The position numbers were made by a program, and so were the translations under genes. Of a stretch of DNA of 50,084 bases, positions 1,649 to 45,952 are shown piece after piece. The stretch spans positions 1 through 50,084 of IMG/VR virus record IMGVR_UViG_3300032272_000019; one strand, written 5' to 3'. Within the stretch, counting starts at the first letter, position 1. Every line of letters begins with the position of its first letter. Origin of the DNA: a virus (Duplodnaviria; Caudoviricetes). The notes under the pieces are model-generated. The model ran no database searches. It saw only the letters and a list, made by a program, of their open reading frames with translations, and was not told the DNA's origin.

Positions 1649-1757
1649 CCCCTGTGGTGTTCGACCGGGGCTTTCATGCCCGGAACGGGTACTTCGTGGA
1701 AGGGGGGACCGAAAGGCTCCCTCTTTTTAAAGAGGGCTGGGGTGATTGACAACCAGG
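1633..1757. repeat. Composite REP-like element (family B) carrying micro-insert copy 1
   Basis: Matches 28039-28077 and 49154-49213. Confidence 0.85.
1653..1691 (+). mobile_element. Type-1 micro-element, copy 1 (39 bp)
   Basis: Removal restores the element at 28039-28075 with one loop mismatch. Confidence 0.8.
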
Positions 1758-1766
1758 GGTTTACTC

Positions 1767-1943
1767 ATGATCAAAAATTTATTCTGGAATATCTGGGCGC
1801 GGTTTTTTGAGATCGGTGAGTGCTTCATGTTTCTAGGGGGAATGATCATCATGCTTTTGTTCTCGCTGGTTCTTGCGGTGCCTGCTCTTCTGTTTAAAGA
1901 AACCGAGCATGATGGTAAGCCCGTTAGGTGGAACCACAGATGA
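1767..1943 (+). CDS. Small membrane protein
   Basis: Hydrophobic stretch FMFLGGMIIMLLFSLVLAVPALLF; flanked by repeats. Confidence 0.5.
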   Translation: MIKNLFWNIWARFFEIGECFMFLGGMIIMLLFSLVLAVPALLFKETEHDGKPVRWNHR

Positions 1944-2004
1944 ACACGGATCAAATCTGATAAGTGCGTTTTTAATCTCTGTTCATCTGTGTTTATCGGT
2001 GGTT
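1932..2004. repeat. Decamer-built palindrome (family A: AACCACAGAT-GAACACGGAT...ATCGGTGGTT)
   Basis: Inverted near-copy at 4630-4703. Confidence 0.85.
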
Positions 2005-2021
2005 AAGAAAGGAAGTGTTAA

Positions 2022-3215
2022 ATGTCAAAAACAAAAATTGAGTGGACTGACTTTAGCTGGAACCCGATCCGTGCCCGGCAGATATCGACCGGCAAGGTCG
2101 GGCACCACTGCACGATGATCGCGACCGGTTGCAAATTTTGTTACAGCCATGCCATGCAGAGTCGGTTCGGCGACAACTTTGGCATAGAGCTCCCTTACAA
2201 AAAAGAATCGCTCAACGATATCGAGTTCTTCATCGATGAAGACACGCTCAAACAACCGCTCGGGTGGCGTGAACCGAAGAAGGTTTTTGTCTGCTCGATG
2301 ATGGATTTGTTTCATCCATCAATACCTCTTGAACTGATCGACCAGGTGTTTGCTGTGATGGCAATAGCCTCAAAACACACGTTCATAGTGCTGACCAAAC
2401 GTCCACCGCAGATGCTCGAGTATTTGAATGGGTTTGCTAATGGCGATGATCCCACGATTGAAAGGGTTCTGCGGCTTAAAAATTACCAGAAATTCCATAA
2501 ACATTTTTCAGATTACCGCATGGGTGGGGCACTACCCAATGTCTGGCTGATGGTTTCAGGATCCAATCAGGACGATATTGACCGGAATGTGCCGATCCTT
2601 TTGGAATGTCCGGCCGTAGTGCGGGGTGTGAGCCTCGAGCCGATGACCGGGCCGGTGGACCTTGCGGCATGGTTGCCGCGATCTAATCCGGAATATGAAG
2701 AACAAGGAACGTCATGCTGGAACTGTGGCGGTGACGGGGGTTTTCATGATTGCGGTGAATGCGCATGCGTGTGTCTCGATAAAGAAGAGATCCACCGGCC
2801 TTGTGAGATATGTGACGGTGAAGGTGAATACATGCTTCCCGAATATTTGGATGGCCTCGACTGGGTGATCACCGGTGGTGAGACGGGGGAGGGGGCAAGG
2901 CCCGCACATCCTGACTGGTTTCGCAGCATCCGCGACCAATGCGAAAAATATAAAACCAAATATTTTCATAAGCAGAACGGGGTTTTTAAGCAGATCGGTT
3001 ATGACGATTGGCAGAAGGGTGGCGGCATCGTTCTCAGTGAGGATGGCCATGTCTTAATGAACCGGCAGAAAGGGCTAAATGCCCCAGCCTTGTTTCCCAT
3101 TTGCGATAGCGATGTTTTGTTGCGCAAAACCAATAAACAAACCGCTGGCCGGTTGATTGACGGCATTGAGCATAGTGAATTCCCCGCCACAAATAAAAGT
3201 GAGGTGAAAGGATGA
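2022..3215 (+). CDS. Phage Gp37/Gp68 (DUF5131) family protein
   Basis: TKIEWTD.SWNP, C..IATGCKFCY, VFVCSMMDLFH, LTKRP, VSLEP, LDWVITGGETG, FHKQNG. Confidence 0.9.
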   Translation: MSKTKIEWTDFSWNPIRARQISTGKVGHHCTMIATGCKFCYSHAMQSRFGDNFGIELPYKKESLNDIEFFIDEDTLKQPLGWREPKKVFVCSMMDLFHPSIPLELIDQVFAVMAIASKHTFIVLTKRPPQMLEYLNGFANGDDPTIERVLRLKNYQKFHKHFSDYRMGGALPNVWLMVSGSNQDDIDRNVPILLECPAVVRGVSLEPMTGPVDLAAWLPRSNPEYEEQGTSCWNCGGDGGFHDCGECACVCLDKEEIHRPCEICDGEGEYMLPEYLDGLDWVITGGETGEGARPAHPDWFRSIRDQCEKYKTKYFHKQNGVFKQIGYDDWQKGGGIVLSEDGHVLMNRQKGLNAPALFPICDSDVLLRKTNKQTAGRLIDGIEHSEFPATNKSEVKG

Positions 3216-3850
3216 ACTTAAGCCACTGCACGGAAGAACGGTTTTTGAATGATGTCAAAGAGCATGAACTAACTGTGGTCCATGATTCTGAAAATGGTCG
3301 GCATTTGAAATTCAGAAAACCGGGCACCATTTGTTATGGGTTTGACCTCATCACCTGGCCGGGGTTCTTGTCTATCACGGGGGATCTCGGTTGTTATGTT
3401 TTTTCGCGACTCCCGGACATGTTCGAGTTTTTCAGGATGGAGGAGGGAAGAATCTATCCTGTCGGGAATAAAGAGTTATCCATCAACCCTGGATATTGGG
3501 GACAGAAACTAAAAAGCATTTGCAAGATTGGCGGCTTCCAGGAATTTTCCGAGGTAAGTTTCCGCGCCGCCATCAAGGATCACTATGAAACTAATTGGGA
3601 ATATGAATCACCAAAGCAAAAAGGTGTGGTGTGGCGGGAACTCAAAGAGGAGATCCTGGACTACGCCGACGTGCGCGAAGTGGCCTTTCATCAAGCATAT
3701 AGTTTCAAGTCAAGCTATGGGCACAGGATCTATGACTGGGAGGCTGATTGTGAAGCGTTCACGTTCTCTTACATCTGGTGCCTGTACGCCATTGTCTGGG
3801 GGATATCTAAATACGATGAACTGAAAGCCGTGGCGGAGGTGAAATCATGA
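3212..3850 (+). CDS. Conserved phage hypothetical protein (paralog 1)
   Basis: FDLITWPG.L..TGD.G.YVF.R..DMF.FFR shared with next ORF. Confidence 0.8.
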   Translation: MNLSHCTEERFLNDVKEHELTVVHDSENGRHLKFRKPGTICYGFDLITWPGFLSITGDLGCYVFSRLPDMFEFFRMEEGRIYPVGNKELSINPGYWGQKLKSICKIGGFQEFSEVSFRAAIKDHYETNWEYESPKQKGVVWRELKEEILDYADVREVAFHQAYSFKSSYGHRIYDWEADCEAFTFSYIWCLYAIVWGISKYDELKAVAEVKS

Positions 3851-4512
3851 AAGAACGGCCATGCTCGGAAGAACAGTTTTTAAAAAACGTGAAGGATCAC
3901 AAGGCCATCATCATCCGTGATGATGATGAAAGGGCCTATCGCCATATCCGGTTCAGGCAGCCTAAAGATAGCAACATGTATTTTGATTTGATCACTTGGC
4001 CGGGGCACCTATGCTTCACCGGCGATATGGGCACCTATGTTTTCGAACGTGTTGAAGATATGTTCGGCTTTTTCAGGAACAACCACACCAAAGATAAGAA
4101 TATCGGGCTGTCGATCAATCCAGATTACTGGGGTGAAAAGTTGCTCTGCAGTGACAAGGTGAGCGGTTTTCAAAAGTTCTCGCCTGAAAGGTTTAAGGAG
4201 CGGGCTAGAGACCACCTTGAACGGTGTGAGTACGATGAGATTCTTCAGGAGCGTATCTGGAAGGAAGTTGAAGAAAGTGTTTTGTGTTATCTCGATGGGG
4301 ACTTTGATCAAGAGAACAGAGCTTATAGAAAAATTCAAGATTTCGTGTCAGAAGAAGAGCCTTCTTTCATCTTTCTAGATTTCTTCGATGGCGGGGGTAC
4401 GAACGAATACACCTATCGGTATATCTGGTGCCTCTACGCCATTGTCTGGGGGATATCTAAATACGATGAGGTCAGGGCGGAGAAAGAAAACACCACGGCG
4501 GTGGCGCCGTGA
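3847..4512 (+). CDS. Conserved phage hypothetical protein (paralog 2)
   Basis: Paralogous over full length to 3212-3850; ATGA overlap. Confidence 0.8.
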   Translation: MKERPCSEEQFLKNVKDHKAIIIRDDDERAYRHIRFRQPKDSNMYFDLITWPGHLCFTGDMGTYVFERVEDMFGFFRNNHTKDKNIGLSINPDYWGEKLLCSDKVSGFQKFSPERFKERARDHLERCEYDEILQERIWKEVEESVLCYLDGDFDQENRAYRKIQDFVSEEEPSFIFLDFFDGGGTNEYTYRYIWCLYAIVWGISKYDEVRAEKENTTAVAP

Positions 4513-4629
4513 TCGGATTCACTGAGCTCATTGTCGTCATGGCCATCTTGTTTGTGATTTATACCCCTTCGGGGCATGAAAGCTAATGAAGAGGTCATCA
4601 CATCCGGTCGGGCACTACCGAACCTGAGT
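4509..4629 (+). pseudogene. TatA-like mini-gene interrupted by micro-element
   Basis: IGFTELIVVMAILFVIY|SGRALPNL once about 40 bp are removed. Confidence 0.35.
4562..4602 (-). mobile_element. Type-1 micro-element, copy 2 (41 bp)
   Basis: Reverse complement TGTGATGACCTCTTCATTAGCTTTCATGCCCCGAAGGGGTA fits consensus. Confidence 0.75.
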
Positions 4630-4703
4630 AACCACAGATGGACACCGATGAACAGAGATTTAAAACCGAACTTATCAGATTTGATCTGTGTTTATCGGTG
4701 GTT
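4630..4703. repeat. Family A decamer palindrome
   Basis: Reverse-complement near-copy of 1932-2004 including spacer. Confidence 0.85.
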
Positions 4704-4728
4704 GACTAAACCTTAATGGAGAAACTTT

Positions 4729-5067
4729 ATGAACGCTGAAACCAAACCATCGGGACCGGTCAAGGTCAAGGGGCTGGGCAACCGTCTGCGCCAGTGGCGC
4801 AAAAGAAAAGGCCTGAAGCTGAAGGAACTGTCGGCAGTGCTGGGGGTGTCTCAAGGAAGCTTGTCGGATATTGAAAACGAAAAGTCTCTGCCCTCGGCGG
4901 ATACTTTGCTCTCGATCGAAATGAACACCGATCTGTGCATCCTCTATCTTTTGAGTGGCCGAGCCGACCGAGCGGGTCAAGAAAAAATATGGGACTACAG
5001 AGACGCACCGATAGTCATCAACCTGAAAGAACATGCCGGTGGTGTGTTGATCAAGTCGGGGGAATGA
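4729..5067 (+). CDS. XRE-family HTH protein
   Basis: LGNRLRQWRKRKGLKLKELSAVLGVSQGSLSDIENEKSLPS. Confidence 0.9.
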   Translation: MNAETKPSGPVKVKGLGNRLRQWRKRKGLKLKELSAVLGVSQGSLSDIENEKSLPSADTLLSIEMNTDLCILYLLSGRADRAGQEKIWDYRDAPIVINLKEHAGGVLIKSGE

Positions 5068-5648
5068 TGCTTCGAGAGCCTCAGCATGACAATAAACAAT
5101 CTGCCGCGAGTCGTTCATTGGATGCAACGTCACGTTGCCAGGTTCGTTTATTCAGAGATCCTACTCGAGGGGCGATGTTCTCGGCTGACAGGATCTATCG
5201 TTATCTTTTATGGCGGCGGTGGGACCCTGCTCAACGGCATGGGGTGTTCTTGATGCTCAACCCCTCAACGGCAGATGAGACGGTGAACGATCGCACGGTG
5301 GCGAAGTGCGAGAACTGGGCCCGACAATGGGGCTGGGGTGGACTTTATGTGCTGAACCTTTTTGCTTACCGGTCCACGGATCCGAAACTGATGAAGCTGG
5401 TGAAGGAACCGATCGGACCGGATAACGACCGTGTGATTCTGAAGATTTGCCAGCGGGCGCATTTAATTGTTTGTGCCTGGGGGAATGACGGAACGCATGA
5501 TGGTCGGTCGTACCAGGTTCAGCAGATGCTGGTGAAAAACGGGTGCATGACGAAACTGTTCTCCCTGCACCGAAATGAAGCGACGGGCGAACCGGGTCAC
5601 CCGCTGTATTTGAAGAACAGCACTGAACTGACACCGATGTTTGGCTGA
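5064..5648 (+). CDS. DUF1643 family protein (start inferred from ATGA overlap)
   Basis: YRYLLWRRWD, MLNPSTAD, NLFAYRSTDP, AWG, HPLY. Confidence 0.85.
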   Translation: MMLREPQHDNKQSAASRSLDATSRCQVRLFRDPTRGAMFSADRIYRYLLWRRWDPAQRHGVFLMLNPSTADETVNDRTVAKCENWARQWGWGGLYVLNLFAYRSTDPKLMKLVKEPIGPDNDRVILKICQRAHLIVCAWGNDGTHDGRSYQVQQMLVKNGCMTKLFSLHRNEATGEPGHPLYLKNSTELTPMFG

Positions 5649-5657
5649 TGGAATGGA

Positions 5658-6683
5658 ATGAGAATTAAAAAAGGTTGGCAAAAAGTAGACAACCAACTAC
5701 AGGACCCGGAGCACTGGGACGCGGTTCGCGGGATTGGTCCCAATGCCATGCAGCTATATCTCTATCTGGTGACCTGGATGGACGATGAAAAGCGTTATAT
5801 CGGCAGGAAGTATCAAACCATATACGAGGACACGGGGGTGCCTGTGCGGACTCTCAAGGAGTGGATGCGAAAATTGAAGAAAAACGGTTATGTCGAAGTA
5901 ACGAGGTTTGCTCAATCGATGGGGATTCATGTTGTTCCACTGGGCGTTCGGCATAAAAAGAGAAGTGCCAGTTCCGACACTTCCCCGGATGGCCGGGAGC
6001 CAGAAAGAACCGAGACCCATGAACCGGTTGAGGGTCGGCAAGAAGTCATTGAAGAAGTGCTGAACCCGGCACCACTTGAAGTGCAGGAAGTGGCCCCTCA
6101 TGCTGTTTTTTTGCCTAAAACAGAAGTGCCAGTTGAAGGTGAGAGAAGTGCCAGATCAGAGGGAGAGATGGGCCAGATGCCAGACAGTGAAGTGCAGGAC
6201 GTTGTAACAGGTGCAGAGAACAGCACTTCTTCAAGCGATGGATTTAAAAAGGAAAAACAGCCGACAGGTGCAACCTGTGGCCCATCGGATAAGAGTCTTT
6301 TAAAAAGATTTTCTGTTTTAGATTCTTTAAGGGAGAGGGGGGACAGTTTGGAAACGGAAGCTGAACTGTTTTGGGAATTAGCGTCACGGGTTCACAACAA
6401 GATTCACCACCTCCCCCTGTTGAATAAAAATATTGAGAAGGATCTGGAAAAGATTAAAACATTTTTCTCTGAGAACGTGATCGATTTCAACACTCTGCTC
6501 ATCGCCTATGTGAGTTTTTGCCGGTCACGAGACGATTATTTGCGGGGTCGGCCTCGCAACATCGCCATGTTCTTCGGCCAGGTTGATGACCATCTGGTTT
6601 GGGCTGGGCATAAACGCTGGGCAATGTCTGAACGACTGAAAGAACGGCGACAATCAATTTTAACCACCGATGGACACGGATAA
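5658..6683 (+). CDS. Putative replication initiator (N-terminal winged HTH)
   Basis: LYLYL..., TGVPVRTLKEWMRKLKKNGYVE; low-complexity linker containing iteron-like repeats. Confidence 0.6.
   Translation: MRIKKGWQKVDNQLQDPEHWDAVRGIGPNAMQLYLYLVTWMDDEKRYIGRKYQTIYEDTGVPVRTLKEWMRKLKKNGYVEVTRFAQSMGIHVVPLGVRHKKRSASSDTSPDGREPERTETHEPVEGRQEVIEEVLNPAPLEVQEVAPHAVFLPKTEVPVEGERSARSEGEMGQMPDSEVQDVVTGAENSTSSSDGFKKEKQPTGATCGPSDKSLLKRFSVLDSLRERGDSLETEAELFWELASRVHNKIHHLPLLNKNIEKDLEKIKTFFSENVIDFNTLLIAYVSFCRSRDDYLRGRPRNIAMFFGQVDDHLVWAGHKRWAMSERLKERRQSILTTDGHG
5961..6330. promoter_or_regulatory. Putative replication origin (GAAGTGC iterons plus AT-rich tract)
   Basis: GAAGTGC cores in repeats starting near 5961, 6053, 6078, 6122, 6144, 6189; inverted copy 6221-6234; AT-rich 6290-6330. 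Confidence 0.55.
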
Positions 6684-6723
6684 ACAGAGATAAATCTGAG
6701 TTCATCTGTGTGAATCTGTGGTT
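6662..6723. repeat. Family A decamer palindrome (3+3 units)
   Basis: AACCACCGAT GGACACGGAT AAACAGAGAT / ATCTGAGTTC ATCTGTGTGA ATCTGTGGTT. Confidence 0.85.
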
Positions 6724-6741
6724 TAAAAAAAGGAGTGGCAC

Positions 6742-8077: not shown

Positions 8078-8389
8078 ATGGCGACTAAAAGTAAAAACCT
8101 TGTTCTCGTTTTGGATTATGAATATTTCGATCAGGTTGAGGCTGGAGAGAAACCCGAAGAGTACCGCGAGTTCAAACAGTACTGGGTCACCCGGTTGGTG
8201 GGCAGGAAGTACGAAAAAATTATTATAAGACGCGGGTATACGAAAACTCAACTCGAGTTCCCGTATAACGGCTATGAAATTAAAACCATCACCCATAAAA
8301 AGTTTGGCAACAAACCGAAGGTGGTGTTCGCAATACCTTTGGTCGCGGGGCCAGTGAAAACCTTAAAAGGAACCACAGATGAACACTGA
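8078..8389 (+). CDS. ASCH/PUA-like domain protein
   Basis: L.L..EYFDQV.AGEK.EEYRE...YW..RL. Confidence 0.75.
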   Translation: MATKSKNLVLVLDYEYFDQVEAGEKPEEYREFKQYWVTRLVGRKYEKIIIRRGYTKTQLEFPYNGYEIKTITHKKFGNKPKVVFAIPLVAGPVKTLKGTTDEH

Positions 8390-8460
8390 TTCACACAGAT
8401 TTTTGAATGTCATGCTGAGGCCCTCGAAGCATATCTGTGTTTATCTGTGTTTATCGGTGG
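8371..8460. repeat. Family A palindrome with nested family C unit (8408-8432)
   Basis: Three decamers each side; TGTCATGCTGAGGCCCTCGAAGCAT also inverted at 33126-33150 and 5067-5091. Confidence 0.85.
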
Positions 8461-8467
8461 ATAAAGA

Positions 8468-10975
8468 ATGAACTATCAAGAATTTTTAAAATCCAAAACC
8501 CGACTGGCACCCTCGAGCGGGTTTGAGGTGTCGAAAGAAGACATCCATCCACTTCTGCACCGGCATCAGCCGGACATTGTGCAGTGGGCTTTGCGTGGGG
8601 GGTGTCGTGCGATCTTCGCGGCGTTTGGGTTGGGGAAAACTCTGATTCAATTGGAGATCTTGCGGCTCATTGAATCTTTGAAGTATGGGTGCTGGCCATG
8701 CCTGATTGTTTTGCCATTGGGGGTCAAGCAGGAATTTCAGATTGATGCGGTAAAACTCGGCATGGATGTGCGGTTCATTCGAAAGAATTCTGAGATCGAG
8801 AGAGAGCACCATTTTTATATCACCAACTATGAGTCGGTGCGTGACGGCAAGGTAGACCCGAATTTGTTTCAAGCTGCCAGCCTGGATGAGGCGTCGGTGT
8901 TGCGCTCTTATGGGTCGGAGACTTACCAGAAGTTCCTCACCTTGTTTGATCAGGTGCCTTATAAGTTTGTGGCGACTGCTACACCATCGCCAAACCGGTA
9001 TAAAGAACTGATTCACTATGCTGGCTTTCTCGGCATCATGGACACGGGGCAGGCCTTGACCCGGTTTTTCCAGCGCGATTCGACTCAAGCCAATAACCTG
9101 ACCCTATTGCCGAGTATGGAAGAGGAGTTCTGGTTGTGGTTGTCGAGCTGGGCGGTGTTCATTCAGAAACCTTCTGATCTCGGGTACTCGGACGAAGGGT
9201 ATGACCTGCCGGAGCTGGAGGTGGTGACTCATGAAGTGCCGAGCAATTATAAGCAGGACGATACGGAGAAAGACGGGCAGGGGAAAATGTTCCGTGACAC
9301 GTCGATGGGAGTGCAAGAGGCCTCGAAGGAAAAGGCCGACACTATCGATATCCGCATCTCCAAAATGAAAGAGATCATTGATCAGGATCCCGATGACCAC
9401 ATGATTCTGTGGCACGACCTTGAGGCAGAACGCCGGGCGATCAAGCGGGAGGTGCCGGATTGTGTTGAGGTGTACGGCGCTCTTGATTTGGAAAAGCGCG
9501 AGGAACGGATTATCGATTTCAGTAATGGCAAATTTAAATACCTCGGCACCAAGCCGGTGCTGTCTGGGTCGGGTTGCAACTTCCAGCGTCATTGTCATCG
9601 GGCGATCTTCCCGGGCATTGGATTCAAGTTTCACGACTTCATTCAGGCGGTCCACCGGATTCTCCGGTTCATGCAGAAACATCAATGCCGCATCGATATC
9701 ATCTACACCGAAGCCGAGCGCGGCACCTTTGACATGTTGATGCGCAAATGGGAAGAGCATAAAAAGCTGGTGGCGAATATGCAGGCGTTGTTGAAAGAAC
9801 ATGGCCTGAATTCTCTCGACGATGATATTGCCCTGACCCGATCTATCGGTGTCGAACGGCAGGAGGTGACGGGCAAGAACTGGAAAGCCGTGAACAACGA
9901 CTGTGTTGTGGAGTCGGAGTCGATGCAGGAAAACTCGGTCGGGTTGATCGTCACGTCCATTCCGTTCGCCAACCATTATGAGTATACGGAGAGTTATAAC
10001 GATTTTGGTCACACCACAAACAATGGCCATTTCTGGAAGCAAATGGATTTCCTCACCCCGCAGATGCTGAGAGTTCTGCAACCGGGCAGGATCTATGCCT
10101 GCCATGTGAAAGACCGGATTAATTTCGGCAGTGTGACGGGCAAGGGAGTGCCAACATCAAGCCCATTTCACGCTGAAGCTATTTTTCACGCCATGGAGCA
10201 TGGCTTCGACTATCTCGGAATGATCACGGTGGTGACCGATGTGGTGCGTGAGAACAACCAGACTTATCGGCTCGGGTGGAGTGAGCAATGCAAGGATGGC
10301 ACGAAGATGGGGGTCGGGTCGCCTGAATATATTTTGTTGTTCCGCAAGCCCCAGACCGATCGTTCTAAAGGATTTGCCGATGTGCCGGTGGTGAAGTCGA
10401 AAGAAGATTATAGCCGGTCACGCTGGCAGGTGGACGCGCATGCGTTGTGGCGGTCATCGGGGGATCGACGCTTGACGGTCGATGAGTTCGCCGCGTGTGG
10501 TCCGGGTAAACTCGCGACGTTGTTCACAGCCGAGAGCCTGAAGCATGTTTATAACTACGAAGATCACGTCCGCGTTGGAGAGTCATTAGACAGCCGCGGG
10601 GCTCTCCCCGCTTCGTTCATGTCGTTGGCGCCGGGTTCTCATCACCCAAAAGTGTGGACGGATGTCAACCGCATGTTGACGATGAACGGTGAGCAGACCA
10701 GGCGGGGCCTGAATAACCATGTTTGTCCCCTGCAGTTCGATATCGTTGACCGCTTGATCACCCGGTATTCGAATGAAGGCGATGTGGTATGTGATTTTTT
10801 TGCTGGATTGTACACGGTGCCCTGTCGGGCCGTGAAGTTAAAACGTGTCGGCTGGGGGGTCGAGTTGAATACCGGATATTGGAAAGACGGCGGCTGGTAC
10901 CTGCGGGCAGAAGAAGCCCAGGTCGATATGCCGACACTCTTTAAGCTGGACTCACTAGCCGTGGAGGCATCGTGA
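8468..10975 (+). CDS. SF2 (SNF2-like) helicase fused to N4/N6 DNA methyltransferase
   Basis: FGLGKT, LDEAS, TATP, QAVHRI.RF; then VTSIPF, HVCPLQ, DFFAGL, GVEL. Confidence 0.9.
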   Translation: MNYQEFLKSKTRLAPSSGFEVSKEDIHPLLHRHQPDIVQWALRGGCRAIFAAFGLGKTLIQLEILRLIESLKYGCWPCLIVLPLGVKQEFQIDAVKLGMDVRFIRKNSEIEREHHFYITNYESVRDGKVDPNLFQAASLDEASVLRSYGSETYQKFLTLFDQVPYKFVATATPSPNRYKELIHYAGFLGIMDTGQALTRFFQRDSTQANNLTLLPSMEEEFWLWLSSWAVFIQKPSDLGYSDEGYDLPELEVVTHEVPSNYKQDDTEKDGQGKMFRDTSMGVQEASKEKADTIDIRISKMKEIIDQDPDDHMILWHDLEAERRAIKREVPDCVEVYGALDLEKREERIIDFSNGKFKYLGTKPVLSGSGCNFQRHCHRAIFPGIGFKFHDFIQAVHRILRFMQKHQCRIDIIYTEAERGTFDMLMRKWEEHKKLVANMQALLKEHGLNSLDDDIALTRSIGVERQEVTGKNWKAVNNDCVVESESMQENSVGLIVTSIPFANHYEYTESYNDFGHTTNNGHFWKQMDFLTPQMLRVLQPGRIYACHVKDRINFGSVTGKGVPTSSPFHAEAIFHAMEHGFDYLGMITVVTDVVRENNQTYRLGWSEQCKDGTKMGVGSPEYILLFRKPQTDRSKGFADVPVVKSKEDYSRSRWQVDAHALWRSSGDRRLTVDEFAACGPGKLATLFTAESLKHVYNYEDHVRVGESLDSRGALPASFMSLAPGSHHPKVWTDVNRMLTMNGEQTRRGLNNHVCPLQFDIVDRLITRYSNEGDVVCDFFAGLYTVPCRAVKLKRVGWGVELNTGYWKDGGWYLRAEEAQVDMPTLFKLDSLAVEAS

Positions 10976-21293: not shown

Positions 21294-21418
21294 AAGCGAG
21301 ATTCTTCTACCCCTTCGGGGCACGAATACTTTGGATGGGGATACCACGACCGTTCAGAATGACAAGAAGAGCCATTTTGTCATCCTCGAGGAGCCAACGG
21401 CGACGAAGGATCTCGGGG
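21294..21418. repeat. Paired family C element, filled by micro-insert
   Basis: Direct repeat of 26182-26267 apart from the insert. Confidence 0.88.
21308..21348 (-). mobile_element. Type-1 micro-element, copy 3 (41 bp)
   Basis: Absent from the otherwise matching 26182-26267 copy. Confidence 0.82.
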
Positions 21419-23863: not shown

Positions 23864-24481
23864 ATGAAAGCCATCTACATAAACGGAATCAACACCACAC
23901 ATGAGGAAGCTGAGGCCCAGGCCGCAGTTCTGAATCAGATGCTCGATTGCAAAGTCGTGCTTTGCTATAACCCGACGTTTTCAGAGAAAGTCAAATATGT
24001 CGGCGTGGTGGTGGACCTGCTCGAGTCTGCCTATAACCGTTTTCTTCCATGGGCTCCGAACTTACCGGTGACGCGCAAGCTGCTGGCGATGATTAACAGC
24101 GAAGTCAAAGAGCAGCGGGATACGGTCATCATCGCTCATTCGCAGGGCACGGCCATCGCGGCCAAAGCCATGGACAGCCTGGAAAAAGTTTATCGAACTT
24201 ATGTGCAGGCGCATTTCTTCGCCAACGTCAACAGCTTTGAGCCTCAAGGTTTTTGGGGCGAATTGTTTGTCAATGATGATGACCCGGTGCGTGACGGCAT
24301 GGTGGTCAGTAATCGGGTGATCCGTCTTTGCAATTGGCTGCGGAAACCTGAACGCAAATGGAAGCAATACACCCGCACCGGAAATGTCCATGGATTTATC
24401 TCCGGGCATTTGAACCGACTGAGCGAGTTCACGGGATTCAGTGAAAGCCATTTTTATCACTTGATGAAAAAACAATATTAA
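23864..24481 (+). CDS. Alpha/beta-hydrolase-like protein
   Basis: YINGI.T, IIAHSQG nucleophile elbow, N..DPV, H. Confidence 0.7.
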   Translation: MKAIYINGINTTHEEAEAQAAVLNQMLDCKVVLCYNPTFSEKVKYVGVVVDLLESAYNRFLPWAPNLPVTRKLLAMINSEVKEQRDTVIIAHSQGTAIAAKAMDSLEKVYRTYVQAHFFANVNSFEPQGFWGELFVNDDDPVRDGMVVSNRVIRLCNWLRKPERKWKQYTRTGNVHGFISGHLNRLSEFTGFSESHFYHLMKKQY

Positions 24482-24509
24482 CCACAGATAAACACGGATG
24501 AACAGAGAT
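24480..24509. repeat. Family A half-element (3 decamers)
   Basis: Spans stop of upstream gene and ATG of downstream gene. Confidence 0.8.
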
Positions 24510-24825
24510 GGGTGAAAAAAGAAACTGCAACGCAAAGGTTGTCACGGACATTTGGCCTAAAGATGCAGAGGCTGTTGTTCCGGGGCATATCCAGTTCAAC
24601 GAAACAAAAAACGGATTGCAGGTTTTATTCGGGTGCCCTTGCGGATGCGGCGATATGCGTTGCGTTGATATTTACCAGAACGGAGAAAAACCACCATCGC
24701 CTTCATGGCTTTGGGACGGCAATAAAGAGAATCCAACTCTTTCGCCTTCGTTGCTTTTATACAAAGACAATCATCAAGAGCATTGGCATGGGTATCTAAG
24801 AAACGGAGTGTTTGAGGAATGCTGA
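24508..24825 (+). CDS. DUF6527-like protein
   Basis: FGCPCGCG, W.WDGN.E.PTLSPS, HWHGYLRNG. Confidence 0.7.
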   Translation: MGEKRNCNAKVVTDIWPKDAEAVVPGHIQFNETKNGLQVLFGCPCGCGDMRCVDIYQNGEKPPSPSWLWDGNKENPTLSPSLLLYKDNHQEHWHGYLRNGVFEEC

Positions 24826-26181: not shown

Positions 26182-26267
26182 AAGCGAGATTCTTCACTGC
26201 GTTCAGAATGACAAGAAGTGCCGTTTTGTCATCCTCGAGGAGCCAACGGGGACGAAGGATATCGGGT
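26182..26267. repeat. Paired family C element (empty site)
   Basis: GAGATTCTTCACTGCGTTCAGAATGAC...GTCATCCTCGAGGAGCC..GACGAAGGAT. Confidence 0.88.
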
Positions 26268-28037: not shown

Positions 28038-28038
28038 A

Positions 28039-28128
28039 AACCAAATCCCCCTAACCCCCTTCGAGGAAGGGGGGATTTACAAACCAGCACCTGGATCGCC
28101 ACACGACCTTCGGTCGTTCGCGACGACG
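28039..28128. repeat. Family B hairpin (empty site) plus family C unit; likely terminator/processing site
   Basis: AATCCCCCTAACCCCCTTCGAGGAAGGGGGGATT; CTGGATCGCCACACGACCTTCGGTCGTTCGCGACGACG. Confidence 0.8.
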
Positions 28129-33072: not shown

Positions 33073-33225
33073 CCACTCGGCGTGGGGCCAATTAAACCCT
33101 ATGACATGGATGCGAATAAACACAGATGCTTCGAGGGCCTCAGCATGACAGCAACCCCCTCAATCCCCCTTGTCAGGGGGAAGTTATTAGCTCCCTCTTT
33201 TTTAAAGAGGGCTGGGGTGATTAAC
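33071..33225. repeat. Composite repeat cluster (families A, C, B plus 37-bp insert)
   Basis: Each unit matches copies elsewhere in the window. Confidence 0.85.
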
Positions 33226-33238: not shown

Positions 33239-33682
33239 ATGAAACCTTTTGACATTTCACCTTATATCGGTGTGCCCTTTCTCGAGCATGGCCGTGACCC
33301 GAACGGCTGGGATTGCTGGGGGTCTTTTTATTACCTGCGCAAAGTCGGTGGTGAGCCGGTGCCGTGTTATTCGGGCCGATACGACGATGTGCGCGATCGT
33401 GAACAACTCGATCACCTGATCAGTAATGAGATGTCACCGTGGGAAAAAATTGAGATCTATCAAGCGGGATTCGGTGATGGGGTGCTTTTGAAAATTGAGA
33501 ACCTGCCGGTTCATATTGGGTTCTATCTTGGGAATAAACAGTTTCTGCACGTTCATGCAGGAATTGAAACGACCGTCGAACGGTTGGACAGTCTGTTCTG
33601 GAAGAGACGGGTTGAAGGTTTGTATCGGCAACGTGACGTTGCATCCAATGAAAATCCTCAAAGATATAGGGGTGAGGCATGA
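33239..33682 (+). CDS. NlpC/P60 tail-associated peptidase
   Basis: YIGVPF...GRD..G.DCWG, HIG.Y, FLH. Confidence 0.9.
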   Translation: MKPFDISPYIGVPFLEHGRDPNGWDCWGSFYYLRKVGGEPVPCYSGRYDDVRDREQLDHLISNEMSPWEKIEIYQAGFGDGVLLKIENLPVHIGFYLGNKQFLHVHAGIETTVERLDSLFWKRRVEGLYRQRDVASNENPQRYRGEA

Positions 33683-39298: not shown

Positions 39299-39610
39299 AT
39301 GCCCGTAAAAGGTCTTGAATATATTGATGCGGCGATTGAGTGGGTGAAGCTGATCGGTAGTTTGATTTTGGGGGTGATCGCTATGATCTGGACCTCGCTC
39401 CGGAACGATAACAGCAAAGCCCATAAACGCATTGATGCTCTGCAAGAAGACAACTGCACCAAAAAGGATCTGGAGGCCGGACTAAAACCCATCCATGACA
39501 CCCAGCAGCTTATCTTGAATAATATGCTCGAGCACAGAAAAACTGAGCTGGTTGGGGCCGACCCGGTGGCGGAGGGTGAACACCGAGATCCTTCGACAGG
39601 CTCAGGATGA
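39299..39610 (+). CDS. Single-TM holin-like protein
   Basis: LIGSLILGVIAMIW then coiled coil; AGGAG RBS; end of late operon. Confidence 0.45.
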   Translation: MPVKGLEYIDAAIEWVKLIGSLILGVIAMIWTSLRNDNSKAHKRIDALQEDNCTKKDLEAGLKPIHDTQQLILNNMLEHRKTELVGADPVAEGEHRDPSTGSG

Positions 39611-39743
39611 CAATTAAAAACCTTGAAAGCAAATCCCCCTAACCCCCTTCGGAGAAGGGGGGATTAAATGAACCCCCTCTTCCTCGAAATACCCGTTCCG
39701 GGCACGAAGGCCAGGGTTAAGTACCACGAGGGCTGGGGTGATC
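39584..39743. repeat. Repeat cluster (family C plus two family B units) between convergent operons
   Basis: GAGATCCTTCGACAGGCTCAGGATGACA; AATCCCCCTAACCCCCTTCGGAGAAGGGGGGATT. Confidence 0.85.
39690..39728 (-). mobile_element. Type-1 micro-element, copy 4 (39 bp)
   Basis: Interrupts a CCCTCTT/AAGAGGG stem like that at 48629-48664. Confidence 0.8.
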
Positions 39744-39769: not shown

Positions 39770-40261
39770 TCAATTAGCCTTGCGGATTCTGACAGCTTCC
39801 TCGACTGCGTTTTCCAGGTGCTCGGAGATCCAGGCATATCTTTCCTTGCTGTTATCACCTTTAGGGTTGTAGCATTTTACGATGGGCGATAGTTCTACCC
39901 CGTCGACCGTGATGTGATTGAGCGGATTGCCGCCCATCTTTGCGATATACCCATCCAGATTTTTCAGGCCGTGGATCCGGATGCAGACCACGCCCATTCC
40001 GGCTTCCCAGGATTTTACAATTTCATGGGTGATCCATTTCCGGGCAGCCGTTTTTTCTCCAACAAGAACCACAGTGCAGGTCCGGCCGTGCATTTGGTCT
40101 TTGATCCATTTCTCAATTGCGGCGTCTCCCTTGCCGGTGACGGTTTCCCAGTCGTTGTCGGAGACGGGGGTGTTGCCCTCAAGCACGCCTATGTTGCGGA
40201 CCTGCCCGGCTCGTGAATTGTCGGGTTTGTAATGAAAGCTGTAAAAACATTTTCTGGCCAT
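39770..40261 (-). CDS. TIR domain protein (ThsB/MTH538/DUF1863-like)
   Basis: MARKCFYSFHY..D..RA.QVRNIG, CTVVLVG..TA.RKWI..EI..S. Confidence 0.9.
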   Translation of the reverse strand: MARKCFYSFHYKPDNSRAGQVRNIGVLEGNTPVSDNDWETVTGKGDAAIEKWIKDQMHGRTCTVVLVGEKTAARKWITHEIVKSWEAGMGVVCIRIHGLKNLDGYIAKMGGNPLNHITVDGVELSPIVKCYNPKGDNSKERYAWISEHLENAVEEAVRIRKAN

Positions 40262-40278: not shown

Positions 40279-40692
40279 TTAAGAACAAGATTTTAAGAAC
40301 ATAACTATGACGATGGTGCCGGTCAGCACACCATGAAATGGAATGAGTGTCTGTGACATCACTACTGAAAACCATGTTCCGGATTTCTTCTTTACATCCG
40401 GAACGAGCGTAGTGTTCATAGAGAAATCGATATCGGCATTATCCAATTTGCGAACATGGTCGTAGAGCGCCCGAAACTTTTTTTCTTCCCATAAAAAATA
40501 ACCATCCAGCCCCCAGAACATGATGGCCGGAATGTATGCCAGAAAAATAAATGCAGGATTGGAATTTGCAGAAGACAAGGCGAATAGCGCAGAGATCAGG
40601 ACCACGCTCCAACCTTTCAGTAAAAATGAGTTGCTGGCCATGCGGGTGATGACAGCCTGTATAAACTCCAGATGTTTTAATTTTTGTTCCAT
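40279..40692 (-). CDS. Small multi-TM protein, candidate TIR-linked effector
   Basis: KHLEFIQ.VI.RMA.NSF.LKGW, FW.LD.YFL..E..FR.LY; about 3 hydrophobic segments. Confidence 0.8.
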   Translation of the reverse strand: MEQKLKHLEFIQAVITRMASNSFLLKGWSVVLISALFALSSANSNPAFIFLAYIPAIMFWGLDGYFLWEEKKFRALYDHVRKLDNADIDFSMNTTLVPDVKKKSGTWFSVVMSQTLIPFHGVLTGTIVIVMFLKSCS

Positions 40693-40725
40693 TGCTTACG
40701 TGCTCCGAATGGGTAGAACCAGAAC

Positions 40726-40781: not shown

Positions 40782-41855
40782 CTAGTCACGCATCTCCGGC
40801 GTCAACGGCCGACCGTTGGCTTTTTTCTGTTCGATTTCTTCGACGGCTTTTTCTAGCGCAAGAAACCGTTTCGCGGTCGAAGGGTGGGTGGAGCCTTTCA
40901 GGTTGATGGCGTTCGGGTGGGCACTGGCCATGCGGCGCCACAGACCTGCAGCCATTTTGCAATCGTTCCCGCTCTGTTCAGTGTAATAGCAACCTACATA
41001 ATCCGCTTCGGCTTCAAATTCCTGCGAATAGGCCATGCCTGCCGCCTGGGATATTGAGGTACCTGAATAGACCCCTCCGGATGCCACGATCAACACGGCA
41101 TCGAGCAAAAACCCTGCCATGCGGTTGCCCAGTTTACTGAGCGAGTGGCCCATGGTGTTATGCGCCATTTCATGTCCGATGATCAGCGCCAGTTCGTCGT
41201 CACTCTCAATAAATTTCATCATGCCGGTGGTGATCATGATGTTCGACCCATCGGCGAAGGCGTTGACGGTGTCGGTCTCCTGAATGACCACAGGGGCATA
41301 ACAGGCCTTCATTCCTTCAATGGTGATGTCATGATGTTCAGTGCCGCGCAGGATCCTTAGTTCTAAATTTTTGTTGTCGCCCTTGCTCCAGTTGGTGATT
41401 TTTGCGCCGAGGTTTGAGAATAAACTTTTCTCTTCACCATTCACGAGCAGGATCTTGTCACGCACTTGCAGTCCGCTCCGGTCGGCCGGGGAGCCAGGTA
41501 AAACAGAAAAAACCGTTAGTTTGTCGTCAACCCCATAGAGATTGTTCCAGGCTTCTTTGCCGATTTCGTCGGCAGTGCCATAAGTTCGGTTATGGAATCC
41601 TGCGTACCAGGTGGCATCGTCTCCACAGGCTTTGGAGTTTTTAGAAAGAACCGGCAAGGCCACACGGTCGAGCCGGTTACGCATGCTGACCTTTTCACTG
41701 ATGGCCGTCTGCATCTGGCGCAGGGCTTCGGCGTGGGCATCTTCTGCGCTGATGGTTGGGGTCTGAGTCTTTGGGGCACACGCGGCCATGAGCATGGCTG
41801 TACAGAATATTGTCATTCTGAATGGAGTGAAGAATCTCGCAGTTCCGGTTTCCAT
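40782..41855 (-). CDS. M48 metalloprotease lipoprotein with PDZ domain
   Basis: MAAC lipobox, V.PGSPA..SGL...D.I..VNG PDZ, NAFA, ELA.IIGHEMAH, E.EAD, STHP. Confidence 0.9.
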   Translation of the reverse strand: METGTARFFTPFRMTIFCTAMLMAACAPKTQTPTISAEDAHAEALRQMQTAISEKVSMRNRLDRVALPVLSKNSKACGDDATWYAGFHNRTYGTADEIGKEAWNNLYGVDDKLTVFSVLPGSPADRSGLQVRDKILLVNGEEKSLFSNLGAKITNWSKGDNKNLELRILRGTEHHDITIEGMKACYAPVVIQETDTVNAFADGSNIMITTGMMKFIESDDELALIIGHEMAHNTMGHSLSKLGNRMAGFLLDAVLIVASGGVYSGTSISQAAGMAYSQEFEAEADYVGCYYTEQSGNDCKMAAGLWRRMASAHPNAINLKGSTHPSTAKRFLALEKAVEEIEQKKANGRPLTPEMRD

Positions 41856-42032
41856 AGCGCACCCAAATAATTTAGGAATGCCTGATGTTAGCTTGATAAT
41901 TCGATTTATGCTATATTTTTTTTCTCGGGTTTAAATTAGGCGATCCGGGCAATTATATGGACCCCTTCCGCACGACCACCGGGCGGAGGGGGTTTATTGT
42001 GGCGTCACGTTGCAACTGATTTTAAAGGAAAG

Positions 42033-42395: not shown

Positions 42396-42399
42396 AAGC

Positions 42400-42777: not shown

Positions 42778-42796
42778 TAGGAAACCTCTTGATGTG

Positions 42797-42866
42797 AATC
42801 ACCCCAGCCCCTCTTTAAAAAGAGGGGTCCATATAACTCCACCTGATAAGGGGGATTGAGGGGGTT
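42797..42866. repeat. Family B double hairpin
   Basis: Inverted counterpart of 33153-33222. Confidence 0.8.
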
Positions 42867-43071: not shown

Positions 43072-43075
43072 ACTC

Positions 43076-43182
43076 AACCCCCTCAGTCCCCTGTGGTGCC
43101 AACTCCAAAGCCTTCATGCCCGGAACGGGTACTTGTCAGGGGGAAGTTTTAAATCTGCGTTCATCGGTGTTTATCTGTGGTT
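43076..43182. repeat. Family B (filled) plus family A half-element
   Basis: Matches 33153-33185 after insert removal; decamers at 43153-43182. Confidence 0.85.
43092..43131 (+). mobile_element. Type-1 micro-element, copy 5 (40 bp)
   Basis: Removal restores 33152-33185 with one mismatch. Confidence 0.82.
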
Positions 43183-43675
43183 AGATGCCCGTCTGTTGTG
43201 CGGTGGCCATGAGTGGATCATGCCCGGCATCTTGCACCAGTTGGCGCCATGCTTTGGCGAACCCGATCAAGGGTAATTCAGACACCTTGCCATCGATGCG
43301 AAACTTTAAGGTCTGACCGGTCAGCATCTCACTCACCAGGTGCCGCGAGGCTTCACCGTTTAAATCATCCTGATCGAACCTGAACGGCCTGTTCCGGTCT
43401 ATGCGGATTTCTATTGGTGTGCGGGAGCCCAGCCGGGTTCTCTCTGCGTTGATATAAAAAAGAGCCTTGATATTATTGTCCTTGATTAACAGTGCCGCAC
43501 CGTTGATTTTCAAGTTATTGCTTGTGGACCCTGTAAATTCATGCGCCCCTACCGAGCATCGTTTCTCATCGGTGAACGAATCTGTGGTGCAATCGAATTT
43601 CCAGCCATCGAATTCAGCAAATACTGTACTCGTTGAAAAAACAAAAACCAGTAAAAGCATGAATATTTTTTTCAT
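43181..43675 (-). CDS. Secreted hypothetical protein
   Basis: MKK-hydrophobic-VFA signal; W...C.TD.FTD.K.C; L.GF.KA. Confidence 0.75.
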   Translation of the reverse strand: MKKIFMLLLVFVFSTSTVFAEFDGWKFDCTTDSFTDEKRCSVGAHEFTGSTSNNLKINGAALLIKDNNIKALFYINAERTRLGSRTPIEIRIDRNRPFRFDQDDLNGEASRHLVSEMLTGQTLKFRIDGKVSELPLIGFAKAWRQLVQDAGHDPLMATAQQTGI

Positions 43676-44052
43676 GATTTGTCTCCAGTTTGTTTTCGAT
43701 ATCTAATTATGGATTCAAGTTCGGCCACCCTTCCTACCAGTTCCAGGCGTTCCTTTTCCGTGCCGTTATTCAGACAATAGATGAATCGGGAGACGGCTGC
43801 AACATGTTTTGCGCCGCCGGGTTTGCCCGGCTCAATGTTCATTCGGCAGTCTGATGTGAACTCGTCGAAGTCCAAACCCTCGTTATGGCAAAAAACCTTA
43901 ACCTGTTCGATGGGTGTGGAGTTGCGGGTGCGACGTTCGCGCACTGCCGCGGTAGACATGCCCAGCAGCTTGCCCACTTCTGTGTCGGTGCGCACTTTTT
44001 TATAAAAGCAAATTTTCAGAAAAAGCCTGGCAAAATCGATGTCCATCGGCAT
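43672..44052 (-). CDS. CI-type HTH protein (186/P2 CI-like N-domain)
   Basis: TDTEVGKLLGMSTAAVRERRTRNSTP. Confidence 0.7.
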   Translation of the reverse strand: MPMDIDFARLFLKICFYKKVRTDTEVGKLLGMSTAAVRERRTRNSTPIEQVKVFCHNEGLDFDEFTSDCRMNIEPGKPGGAKHVAAVSRFIYCLNNGTEKERLELVGRVAELESIIRYRKQTGDKS

Positions 44053-44135
44053 GTATGAAATTCAAGCAATTGTTAGGGTTAATCACAGATTATAGGTGAT
44101 ATGCGGGAATTATCAATAAATATTTTGGAAAACTA

Positions 44136-44534
44136 TTATTCCTCTTTATCAGGCAGGTGGAAACGGGGGTGTTGTCGTCTTCGGATTTTACTGTAGGTCG
44201 TCTCAATGTTATCGAACACTTTGCCCTTGAGTTCCAGGTCCGGGTCGGCAGAGATCACCTTCAGCATATCCAGCCGCTGGAGAAACTTTTCTGTGTCTTC
44301 CGGTCCATAAAGTTCGCTGGCCTCTTCAACGGTCATGTCGTGGTAACCCAGCAGTGTTGGGACCTGGACGTTGAGTGCCGCGGCAATGGCTTTGACGGAC
44401 TTCTCACCCAGGTTGTCGCTCGACTCAATTTTATAAACGTGGTTGGGTGAACAGCCAACGCGATCGGCAAACTGTTGAACAGACCAGCCCGCCGCAAGCC
44501 GAAACTGCTTAATTTTTTTTCCCCATAAATCCAT
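44136..44534 (-). CDS. XRE repressor (candidate immunity repressor, no peptidase domain)
   Basis: GKKIKQFRLAAGWSVQQFADRVGCSPNHVYKIE; divergent from Cro-like gene. Confidence 0.8.
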   Translation of the reverse strand: MDLWGKKIKQFRLAAGWSVQQFADRVGCSPNHVYKIESSDNLGEKSVKAIAAALNVQVPTLLGYHDMTVEEASELYGPEDTEKFLQRLDMLKVISADPDLELKGKVFDNIETTYSKIRRRQHPRFHLPDKEE

Positions 44535-44654
44535 GTAATAACGCCCGTTGCGGTTTTAGTATCATCGCCCTTCCAAATTTAATGTTGACTTTTAAAGCAA
44601 ATACTGTAATTTATCGTCAAATTATCCATACAAGAAAATTGAGGGCATTGACAT
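44535..44654. promoter_or_regulatory. Divergent promoter/operator region
   Basis: AT-rich; TTGACT at 44585 (+) and TTGACG at 44620 (-). Confidence 0.45.
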
Positions 44655-45245
44655 ATGAGTCAAGCAATCTTCGGAGGACTCGTTACCGAGGTCCGGGAAG
44701 AAAAAGGCATCAGCCGGTCCAAGCTCTGCGAGATCATGGGTTACAAAACCTCTGGTGCAGTGACCCGGCTTGAGCAATCTGACAACCCGACGCTGGAACA
44801 AATCAGGAAATCAGCTCAAGCGCTTGAGGTTCCTGTGTCCCGTCTGATTCCAGAGCTTGCCGAAAAACCCGCGCAGAATGTCACCCGGCGTTTTTCAAAA
44901 GCCTTCCTCGCGGTCCTGGTTTTTTTAATAGCAGGCATTTTTACACTGGGACTCTATGCGGTCAATGTAAAAAATTCGGCAATTCGGAAACAATCTGACC
45001 TTTTATTCGGAATGGGAGCGAAATATTACCCTTCCGTAGAGGCCAAAATAGAACCGGAAGGAGCGCGGCAGTGTTTCGGCCGGCTCACTGAAGCCGAGCA
45101 GATGCAGGCGAACAGCAATCTTTTTGCTTACCTCCGGCATGTTAAACGCGTGCGGGAGGGGGGCTTTATCCAAAGCTATAAACAGATTTCAACATGGTAT
45201 TGCAAGAGCTGGCGGAATAGTTATCCGATAAAAACAGACGGCTGA
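44655..45245 (+). CDS. Cro-position XRE HTH protein with transmembrane helix
   Basis: REEKGISRSKLCEIMG..SGAVTRLE; AFLAVLVFLIAGIFTLGLYAV. Confidence 0.75.
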   Translation: MSQAIFGGLVTEVREEKGISRSKLCEIMGYKTSGAVTRLEQSDNPTLEQIRKSAQALEVPVSRLIPELAEKPAQNVTRRFSKAFLAVLVFLIAGIFTLGLYAVNVKNSAIRKQSDLLFGMGAKYYPSVEAKIEPEGARQCFGRLTEAEQMQANSNLFAYLRHVKRVREGGFIQSYKQISTWYCKSWRNSYPIKTDG

Positions 45246-45266
45246 ATAATTCGAGGAGGCTGTGGC

Positions 45267-45443
45267 ATGAAAGATTTATTGCATCACGAAAACACGCAGT
45301 TAAAAACGGACATGGAGGTCCTCGTGCGCCACATCACAGGCGAGCTGGATGAAATCGGTTTGAACGAGGGCCACGTTTTTCAGGTTCTTCAACGCCACAC
45401 CAAAACAGAGATAGAACTTTTGGCGGAGTGTCCGCATGGTTGA
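45267..45443 (+). CDS. 58-aa hypothetical protein (not in ORF track)
   Basis: GAGGAGG RBS; MKDLLHHENTQLK...ECPHG. Confidence 0.6.
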   Translation: MKDLLHHENTQLKTDMEVLVRHITGELDEIGLNEGHVFQVLQRHTKTEIELLAECPHG

Positions 45444-45936
45444 TCCGACGCAAAAGGATGAAAATGTAATCCGCTTTTTCATTGCCGGGGATCCTGTTCC
45501 GCAACAGCGCCACCGTGACCGGAAGCCGGTGCGGAGCAAGAAAGGGAAACTCTTCACACCGAAATACGATCCGTCGGCTACCGCCAAACAACAGTTTCTT
45601 TTGCAAGCCAAATCGAAAGCACCCGAACGGGTGTGGACGGGTCCGATTCAGATGGATTTGATTTTCGTTTTTCCCATCCCGAAATCCCGCAAAGACCTGA
45701 ATCCGGGGGATTACCACATACAAAAACCCGATCGCGACAATTTGATGAAGTTTGTCAAGGATGCGCTTGGTGAGATACCTGCAAAAGGGCGCAGGGCAAA
45801 GGTGCCGTCGCTGTTCTATAAAGACGACTGCCAGATCTGCGCCGGGCCAACTCATAAAATTTACGGAGCCCCAAAACATGTCGGGGTTCACGTCACTTTA
45901 ACGAGGTTGAGCTACCCCTCCGGGGCACGAATTTAA
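45436..45936 (+). CDS. rusA: RusA Holliday junction resolvase
   Basis: G.PVPQ.R.R, KPDRDNL.K.V.DAL, YKDDCQI. Confidence 0.9.
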   Translation: MVDPTQKDENVIRFFIAGDPVPQQRHRDRKPVRSKKGKLFTPKYDPSATAKQQFLLQAKSKAPERVWTGPIQMDLIFVFPIPKSRKDLNPGDYHIQKPDRDNLMKFVKDALGEIPAKGRRAKVPSLFYKDDCQICAGPTHKIYGAPKHVGVHVTLTRLSYPSGARI

Positions 45937-45952
45937 TGAAAGAGATATCACG
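45913..45952 (-). mobile_element. Type-1 micro-element, copy 6 (40 bp)
   Basis: Reverse complement CGTGATATCTCTTTCATTAAATTCGTGCCCCGGAGGGGTA. Confidence 0.78.

Follow-up and report, generated by a model that had tools for sequence, protein, structure and literature searches.

A gene-less element of 39–41 bp in a temperate phage and in Nitrospinota genomes, and the covarying pair of bases at its ends

How does a gene-less sequence of about 40 nucleotides come to stand at six places of a phage genome in which no transposase is recognised? This question is raised by IMG/VR record IMGVR_UViG_3300032272_000019, of which positions 1–50,084 form the window analysed here (the whole stretch of 50,084 bp; phage coordinates given below refer to it). 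It represents the genome of a temperate, tailed phage with a 129-bp terminal repeat, for which a Pfam scan of the open reading frames (ORFs) revealed lambda-like head genes and a tyrosine integrase. An earlier reading of this DNA (in the following the original prediction) had noted the lack of a transposase, and indeed none was present among the scanned ORFs (58 Pfam, 35 PHROGs and 29 NCBIfam). The answer we favour, with moderate confidence, is that the sequence is a non-autonomous Nitrospinota element of 39–41 nt which is moved in trans through an end-joined single-stranded intermediate. Mobility has been ascribed to very small dispersed repeats since 2008, and no account of how they move could be found in the literature searched.

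Copies in the phage and in Nitrospinota genomes

All six copies claimed in the original prediction are present at their positions and on their strands. Three of them lie inside C-rich hairpin repeats, namely copy 1 (1653–1691, + strand; 39 bp, T-A type, CCCG/CGGG hairpin), copy 4 (39690–39728, − strand; 39 bp, C-G type) and copy 5 (43092–43131, + strand; 40 bp, T-A type), the type being given by the first base of the element and the purine (R) it agrees with. Copy 3 (21308–21348, − strand; 41 bp, C-G type) sits inside a repeat resembling the Ssn-related motif, copy 2 (4562–4602, − strand; 41 bp, T-A type, CCCC/GGGG hairpin) is intergenic, and copy 6 (45913–45952, − strand; 40 bp, C-G type, GGA loop) lies in the last codons of a RusA-like ORF, which measures 166 aa with the copy and 161 aa without it. 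A search with the 19-nt hairpin pattern at up to 2 mismatches yielded exactly 6 matches in the phage. As 100 shuffles gave none, the chance expectation is nil and the copies are real. A possible degenerate seventh copy (40673–40715, + strand) has a hairpin with 3 mismatches and a decayed left end.

The element extends from a first Y (or A) to GGGTA. Its boundaries, which had been considered uncertain by ±1 nt, are fixed, as is evident from nested insertions and from repeats whose empty forms are known. Insertions are precise and, in agreement with the original prediction, do not duplicate the target. The classical features of miniature inverted-repeat transposable elements (MITEs), terminal inverted repeats and target duplication, are not present. 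Excision of copies 1 and 5 restores other phage repeats, at 28038–28075 (+ strand) and 33152–33185 (+ strand), ungapped and with one mismatch each, as had been stated. Excision of copy 3 likewise recovers the repeat at 26182–26267 (− strand), but two nucleotides are missing just left of the junction (−4/−3), and these are present in all 158 uninserted copies of this repeat (0/158 lack them). The three uninserted sites had been termed empty sites; they are paralogous copies of the repeats and do not represent pre-insertion alleles. No relatives of the phage, in which true empty alleles might be present, were found with the capsid protein among viral contigs. Among the sequencing runs listed, one DNA run but no RNA run was a match, and the contigs of this DNA run, which drop rare variants, contained no joint that skips copies 4–6. 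For 157 members of a wider set of 260 contexts an empty-like match could be aligned; the best match was free of indels near the junction in 125, some of these being trivial matches within tandem runs.

A scan of a genome collection yielded at least 132 loci, with 121 among the matches listed being titled Nitrospina, Nitrospinales or Nitrospinota. The element abounds in marine bacteria of the Nitrospina type, with exact matches in 38 of 120 Nitrospinota genomes (1 to 303 per genome; most of the 120 are incomplete). The chromosome of one genome (G001) contained 453 hairpin matches at up to 1 mismatch, and the reversed control none. The full element was also found on two other viral contigs (2 of 7 loci), none further being present among 29 loci. 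Copy 1 had no match in a phage collection and copy 2 none in a plasmid collection, and no published description of this element family was found in the literature searched (main texts).

Because the phage has 22 blocks of at least 20 nt, nearly all of them short repeats, in common with Nitrospinota genome G002, a Nitrospinota host appears likely. This comparison and the results on copies, targets and insertion sequences of G002 given below cover 2.0 of its 2.68 Mb (C1:1–2,000,000). No close prophage of this phage was found, the protease giving matches of only 38–39% in 2 of the 120 Nitrospinota genomes. The repeat position that copy 1 occupies in the phage is also filled in four Nitrospinota loci (L052, L090, L330 and L161; 1–3 mismatches over 20 nt), and for this reason copy 1 probably entered the phage as a composite, inside a ready-made host repeat. 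Copy 4 has its nearest element, 3 edits away, at a locus with a similar target (L068), and the element nearest to copy 2 (L050) differs by 2 edits, the target of copy 2 being met nowhere else. For copies 2, 3 and 6 no matching filled target was present among the host loci.

Many copies are passengers of composite repeats or of an insertion sequence (IS) element. In G002 an IS3 carries the element inside orfA in 12 of 12 copies; its removal restores the normal orfA end, and no empty IS3 copy was seen in this genome. Together with the element this IS3 has spread to at least 12 copies (e.g., C1:696215; L103), and six of these have in addition been hit by an IS110. This G002 IS110 inserts in the hairpin of the element in 18 of 18 copies examined (e.g., L486 and L487), and its 5′ non-coding end contains sequences matching both target halves, as do bridge RNAs (PMC11208160). 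This IS110 is a parasite of the element. As movers, IS110 and IS3 of G002 were rejected, their ends being unrelated to those of the element. By altering gene ends, building arrays and serving as landing site of IS110, the element shapes the genomes of Nitrospinota and of their phages.

The end pair and the folded junction

The agreement between the first base and R, claimed for the phage, holds in 6 of 6 copies, with both hairpin variants (CCCG/CGGG and CCCC/GGGG) being represented. It persists in hundreds of copies and predicted a third type there. Among the 125 distinct elements collected first, 112 were T-A or C-G. Where T replaces R, the element begins with A in 10 of 10 hairpins (A-T), most of these copies sitting in one host repeat and possibly representing a single lineage. 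In the set of 356 distinct elements which remained of 384 after mis-called left ends had been dropped, the pair is Watson-Crick in 324 (210 T-A, 103 C-G and 11 A-T). Its mutual information with average product correction (MI-APC) amounts to 0.58 in 161 non-redundant 39-mers, which equals the value for the variable pair of the hairpin itself; the next best value is 0.21. An alignment of 55 sequences contained 46 Watson-Crick pairs (25 C-G, 17 T-A and 4 A-T), 3 T-G and 6 others, and 0 of 500 shuffles scored as high, a control which ignores relatedness and concerns a structure derived from the same 55 sequences. Four identical cores each occur with two pair types. Where adjacent elements are of different Watson-Crick type, the first base of the follower fits its own R in 27 of 27 cases.

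When the right end is joined to the left end, the junction folds as an 8-bp stem in 6 of 6 phage copies, and does so better on the top strand, presumably the active one. The fold reaches −5.5 to −7.1 kcal/mol, whereas the hairpin by itself reaches −3.1 to −3.5 kcal/mol (gain 2.4–3.6 kcal/mol), and in three linear copies folded alone the 2-bp extension does not form. The left arm contains no covarying pairs, and the single hairpin of each element extends to its final base. The terminal loop is GNA in 444 of 467 cases, and a G.T wobble is invariant in 436 of 467. Taken together, the covariation, the switching of pair types on identical cores, the match within adjacent elements and the folding of the junction argue that the end pair is functional and intramolecular. 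According to the original prediction these bases could pair only if the ends are joined, which goes too far, as a linear copy may pair too, by a nested 2-bp helix beside the hairpin. End joining is favoured over such a linear fold-back, and is not the only reading. A circle is the simplest reading, to which a protein-held fold-back of the linear strand would be geometrically equivalent.

The junction structure would consist of C-R-T-G-C-C-C-S, the GNA loop and S-G-G-G-T-A followed by the first two bases of the element, with the cut in the 3′ arm, two bases from the foot of the stem. The conserved information would then lie entirely around the end-to-end junction, and the pyrimidine-rich variable core would act as a spacer. 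The end pair, being kept in three forms, defines a 26-nt junction stem-loop as the likely substrate.

A cut inside a base-paired stem is also what might be expected if a tyrosine recombinase or a topoisomerase-like host enzyme treated the folded junction as a duplex site and carried out one strand exchange with the target. Integron integrases act on folded attC sites via such a single strand exchange, the phage encodes a tyrosine integrase, targets are not duplicated, and the invariant wobble could be a recognition mark. However, the stem has only 8 bp, and element and targets do not have a core sequence in common, which makes this explanation very unlikely. Even less probable is a movement as RNA, in which reverse transcription would bring a circular or folded transcript into the target, with the end pair being part of an RNA structure. 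The pairs, G.U included, are compatible with RNA, and exact ends and tandem runs also arise in RNA-templated synthesis. Yet reverse transcriptases are not significantly associated with the element (10/38 element-bearing versus 15/82 other genomes), copies show no orientation bias towards flanking genes (12 sense, 8 antisense), and the element has no match in Rfam. GNA triloops are a DNA-stable motif.

The end pair bears as well on the possibility that the element is no longer self-mobile. A few ancient insertions would then have been amplified as parts of larger repeats, gene conversion would have reshuffled them, and lineage history would account for the covariation. That many copies are passengers of composite repeats or of IS3 (12/12) fits this possibility, as does one target seen with different cores; the C-A excess described below fits chimeras of tandem pairs. 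It is nevertheless highly improbable, since there are 105 unrelated targets and 12 cases in which the same element follows unrelated flanks, the signal of the end pair in the 39-mers greatly exceeds that of all neighbouring core positions, identical cores switch both bases together, and one insertion lies in phage coding DNA.

Targets and the search for the moving enzyme

The 105 unrelated targets show a weak bias, towards G at −5 (63 targets), towards G (44 targets) or A at −3, and away from A at −2 (3 targets). The right end of the element itself fits this bias, hence the tandem runs and the nesting. End-to-end junctions, the search for which was proposed in the original prediction, are common: 77 metagenome loci match the junction pattern, some of them by chance, and one locus (L324) contains a run of 14 identical units. 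A tendency to land in hairpin stems was not borne out, as only 10 of 116 independent empty targets had z < −2 (median z −0.39). Repeats, and not stems in particular, are where the element lands: in G002, 41 of 64 target families touch another repeat, and so do 20 of 37 single-copy targets, compared to 14% of random non-coding sites. Three modes of target recognition were tried and rejected. The core does not programmably direct the element to its flanks (in 88 independent targets neither complementarity nor identity was in excess), the target does not pair with the left stem arm (the S base does not covary with −6, and −4 is not enriched in G), and the target is not a GNA hairpin cut 2 nt past its loop (−6/−2 pairing 32 observed versus 28 expected).

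Elements nest within one another on both strands. Among 20 elements that have landed at the loop of another, 15 are preceded at the junction by AGCC in place of CCCC; these span 14 outer and 11 inner variants (e.g., L056, L085, L119, L150 and L245). An uninserted hairpin with the AGCC form was not seen. This flank results either from rewriting at insertion or from one event spread by conversion.

Together with copy 3, these cases of a left flank altered at −4/−3 are what resynthesis might produce. It is conceivable, albeit unlikely, that the element spreads without any transposase, the target being opened by ordinary damage or by a hydrolytic nuclease of small size (Ssn GIY-YIG, DUF559 or GxxExxY). 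Host repair polymerases would then copy the folded or circular element in, and the end pair would only set start and stop of copying. The runs of identical units and the frequency of repeats among the single-copy targets are in line with this, and small GIY-YIG proteins are encoded in 5 of 5 element-rich genomes, several of them being flanked by landing repeats of the element. On the other hand, the Ssn-type repeat is no more frequent in element-bearing genomes than in others (18/38 versus 39/82), neither DUF559 (25/38 versus 39/82; P = 0.08) nor GxxExxY (10/38 versus 29/82) is significantly associated with it, and the ends are base-exact without target homology, even in coding DNA.

A search for an HUH gene bounded by or next to the element, as suggested by the original prediction, was negative: the hairpin occurs in 0 of 30 Y1 loci, these 30 being the ones excised from a larger set of Y1 matches. 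Presence in element-bearing and other genomes did not differ significantly for Y1 (13/38 versus 24/82), for Y2, the transposase of IS91/Helitron-like rolling-circle elements (3/38 versus 9/82; presence counts only), and for a four-helix bundle (6/38 versus 20/82); flanks of the GxxExxY, four-helix bundle and DUF559 matches were inspected within G002. No ORF family recurs near the copies in the genome loci, the tandem-junction metagenome loci or G002. A Y1 profile built from 27 loci gave only a remnant and one weak match in G002 (2.0 Mb), 400 kb of G001 and the phage. A 325-aa Y1 which fits subclass 2.1 of PMC6006769 has an intact gene in genome G004, an internal deletion in G001 and no counterpart at the orthologous site of G002. 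Either a full-length relative of at least 65% identity or this remnant was found in 7 of the 38 genomes with the element and in 0 of the 82 without it (P = 2e-4), a count with a post hoc threshold which includes the genome of the query itself and is confounded by kinship; 31 of the 38 element-bearing genomes are devoid of this Y1. This stand-alone clade is a weak lead only. The remnant in G001 (C1:1324664–1324790; L155 and L206) is a MITE-like derivative of the gene which is intact at another locus (L140).

Of the proposed mobilisation of a single-stranded DNA (ssDNA) element in trans by a host enzyme, the parts concerning the element stand (it is non-autonomous, with fixed polar ends and end covariation), but no HUH gene could be tied to it. 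The signature of an HUH/Y1-type mobilisation, lagging-strand bias and guide-target pairing, was not found either. Among possible agents a strand-transfer enzyme of the HUH type is considered the likeliest, a tentative proposal to which we give a probability somewhat below even. In the favoured account, the ends of the element would be brought together in single-stranded DNA, most simply as a mini-circle, and a host enzyme acting in trans would break the junction and rejoin it with the target strand without duplication. Many copies would then be amplified passively in larger host repeats and IS elements, and the phage would have gained its copies in a Nitrospinota host.

Several findings weigh against this account. 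The end pair is discordant in 32 of the 356 elements (22 C-A, 6 T-G and 4 others), its MI-APC is only 0.21 in 40-mers and 0.18 in 41-mers (both mostly T-A), and recently copied elements do not differ significantly from the rest (12/12 versus 291/322 concordant; P = 0.61). A 2-bp fold-back in the linear strand would give the same covariation, and in the assembled contigs, to which the analysis was confined, no circle or read-level junction was seen. Only 1 of the 37 orthologous comparisons revealed a precise empty site, the others being filled (11) or rearranged (25); three more precise empty cases were read by eye. Tandem runs can also arise by slippage or assembly, and at least one phage copy probably came ready-made within a host repeat. 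The cut lies inside the stem, unlike in IS608. Copies of G002 do not exhibit a replichore bias (86/158 copies, 30/64 target families), a test that could be blurred by rearrangements and passive amplification. Finally, genomes G001–G003 contain no intact Y1, and no tested family tracks the element.

Known systems and further repeats

Small dispersed repeats (SDRs) of the Nostocaceae were reportedly described by Elhai et al. in 2008 (Genome Res 18:1484). SDRs have a length near 20–27 nt, form tandem and nested copies and are confined to one lineage. The element is likewise tandem, nested and restricted to one lineage, but it is about twice as long, belongs to another phylum, has no fixed target such as HIP1, and possesses the end-to-end pair in three types. 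SDRs are described as gene-less, very small repeats with precise insertion and without target duplication (PMC5861425, PMC4390886, PMC3116915 and PMC2884548), which also applies to the element. A set of HIP1-inserted 21-mers from a Nostoc plasmid also ends in a GNA-loop hairpin (5 of 14 matches); by inspection of five examples, these 21-mers gain no stem on end joining and are unrelated to the element. Compared by descriptions and by this one set, the element behaves most like cyanobacterial SDRs, which are the closest known kind.

With IS200/IS605 elements (IS608; PMC3201880 and PMC5027513) and their non-autonomous derivatives, the element has polar ends, a hairpin near the right end and the lack of target duplication in common, and also the pairing of hairpin-foot bases with cut-site bases and a target bias 5′ of the insertion point. 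It differs in having one hairpin, not subterminal ones at both ends, in a cut inside the stem and not at a distance from it, and in the lack of a fixed 4–5 nt target word, for which only a weak bias is seen. Neither stem nor core covaries with the flanks, and no guide-target pairing was found. IS608-type elements favour the lagging-strand template (PMC5027513), whereas the element has no lagging-strand bias, and an autonomous partner was not found among the 30 Y1 loci.

The hundreds of intergenic hairpin copies per genome, the mosaic clusters and the role as IS110 target resemble the REP/REPIN/BIME-RAYT systems (PMC3116915, PMC3733652, PMC8266576 and PMC6006769). Unlike these, the element lacks, by alignment, a GTAG or CGTC tag where the hairpin starts from its foot, carries a 20-nt unpaired arm, is arranged head-to-tail and not in inverted pairs, and flanks no Y1 gene at these 30 loci. 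Ssn-related motifs, which go together with SsnA GIY-YIG nucleases (PMC11893778), are hairpin repeats around small GIY-YIG genes. The Nitrospinota genomes and the phage contain such repeats, and the element often lands there; however, they host the element instead of being it, and their distribution is independent. IS110 with its bridge RNA also inserts scarlessly via circles, often into REP-like repeats, but it needs a common core and a specific target (PMC11208160), and the ends of the element are not IS110 ends. The features compared thus place the element outside IS200/IS605 derivatives, REP/RAYT and MITEs, although it may work as a stripped-down single-strand transposon.

A more far-reaching version, which we consider speculative and on balance somewhat unlikely, is a self-contained 40-nt ssDNA circle. 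A hitherto undescribed class of host strand-transfer enzymes would recognise and cut it at the junction stem alone. Single units or rolling-circle multimers would be inserted into almost any target, sometimes with two target bases 3–4 nt from the junction being rewritten. If true, this class would account for many enzyme-less bacterial micro-elements, including SDRs, and a single enzyme that joins a 40-nt ssDNA circle scarlessly to nearly any target would represent a novel recombination activity that might serve as an insertion tool.

Comparable hairpin units were also encountered in other phyla, in Firmicutes (L016, L039, L097 and L116) and at two further loci (L009 and L107). They form arrays of hairpin-only units of ~20 nt with the same right end and varying stems, and similar hairpin-only units also sit inside tRNA-derived repeats of other phyla.

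The phage itself is unusually rich in host repeats. One host-type hairpin repeat family lies at 1715–1750, 33190–33225, 42793–42827, 48625–48659 and 49171–49206, another one at 5066–5091, 8408–8432, 33125–33150 and 39587–39612. A second dispersed repeat of ~35–47 nt, often present as inverted pairs between genes, occupies 1929–2021, 4627–4720, 6659–6740, 8368–8479, 24477–24511 and 43146–43199. After the tail module, two accessory genes were assigned by the Pfam scan, namely a Thoeris ThsB-like TIR domain protein (39770–40261, − strand) and an M48 peptidase with a PDZ domain (40782–41855, − strand). Two coding regions 28 kb apart contain a perfect 26-nt inverted match (5114–5139 and 33627–33652), and two neighbouring phrog_4657 paralogues at 3212–4512 have a 50-nt repeat of 96% identity in common.

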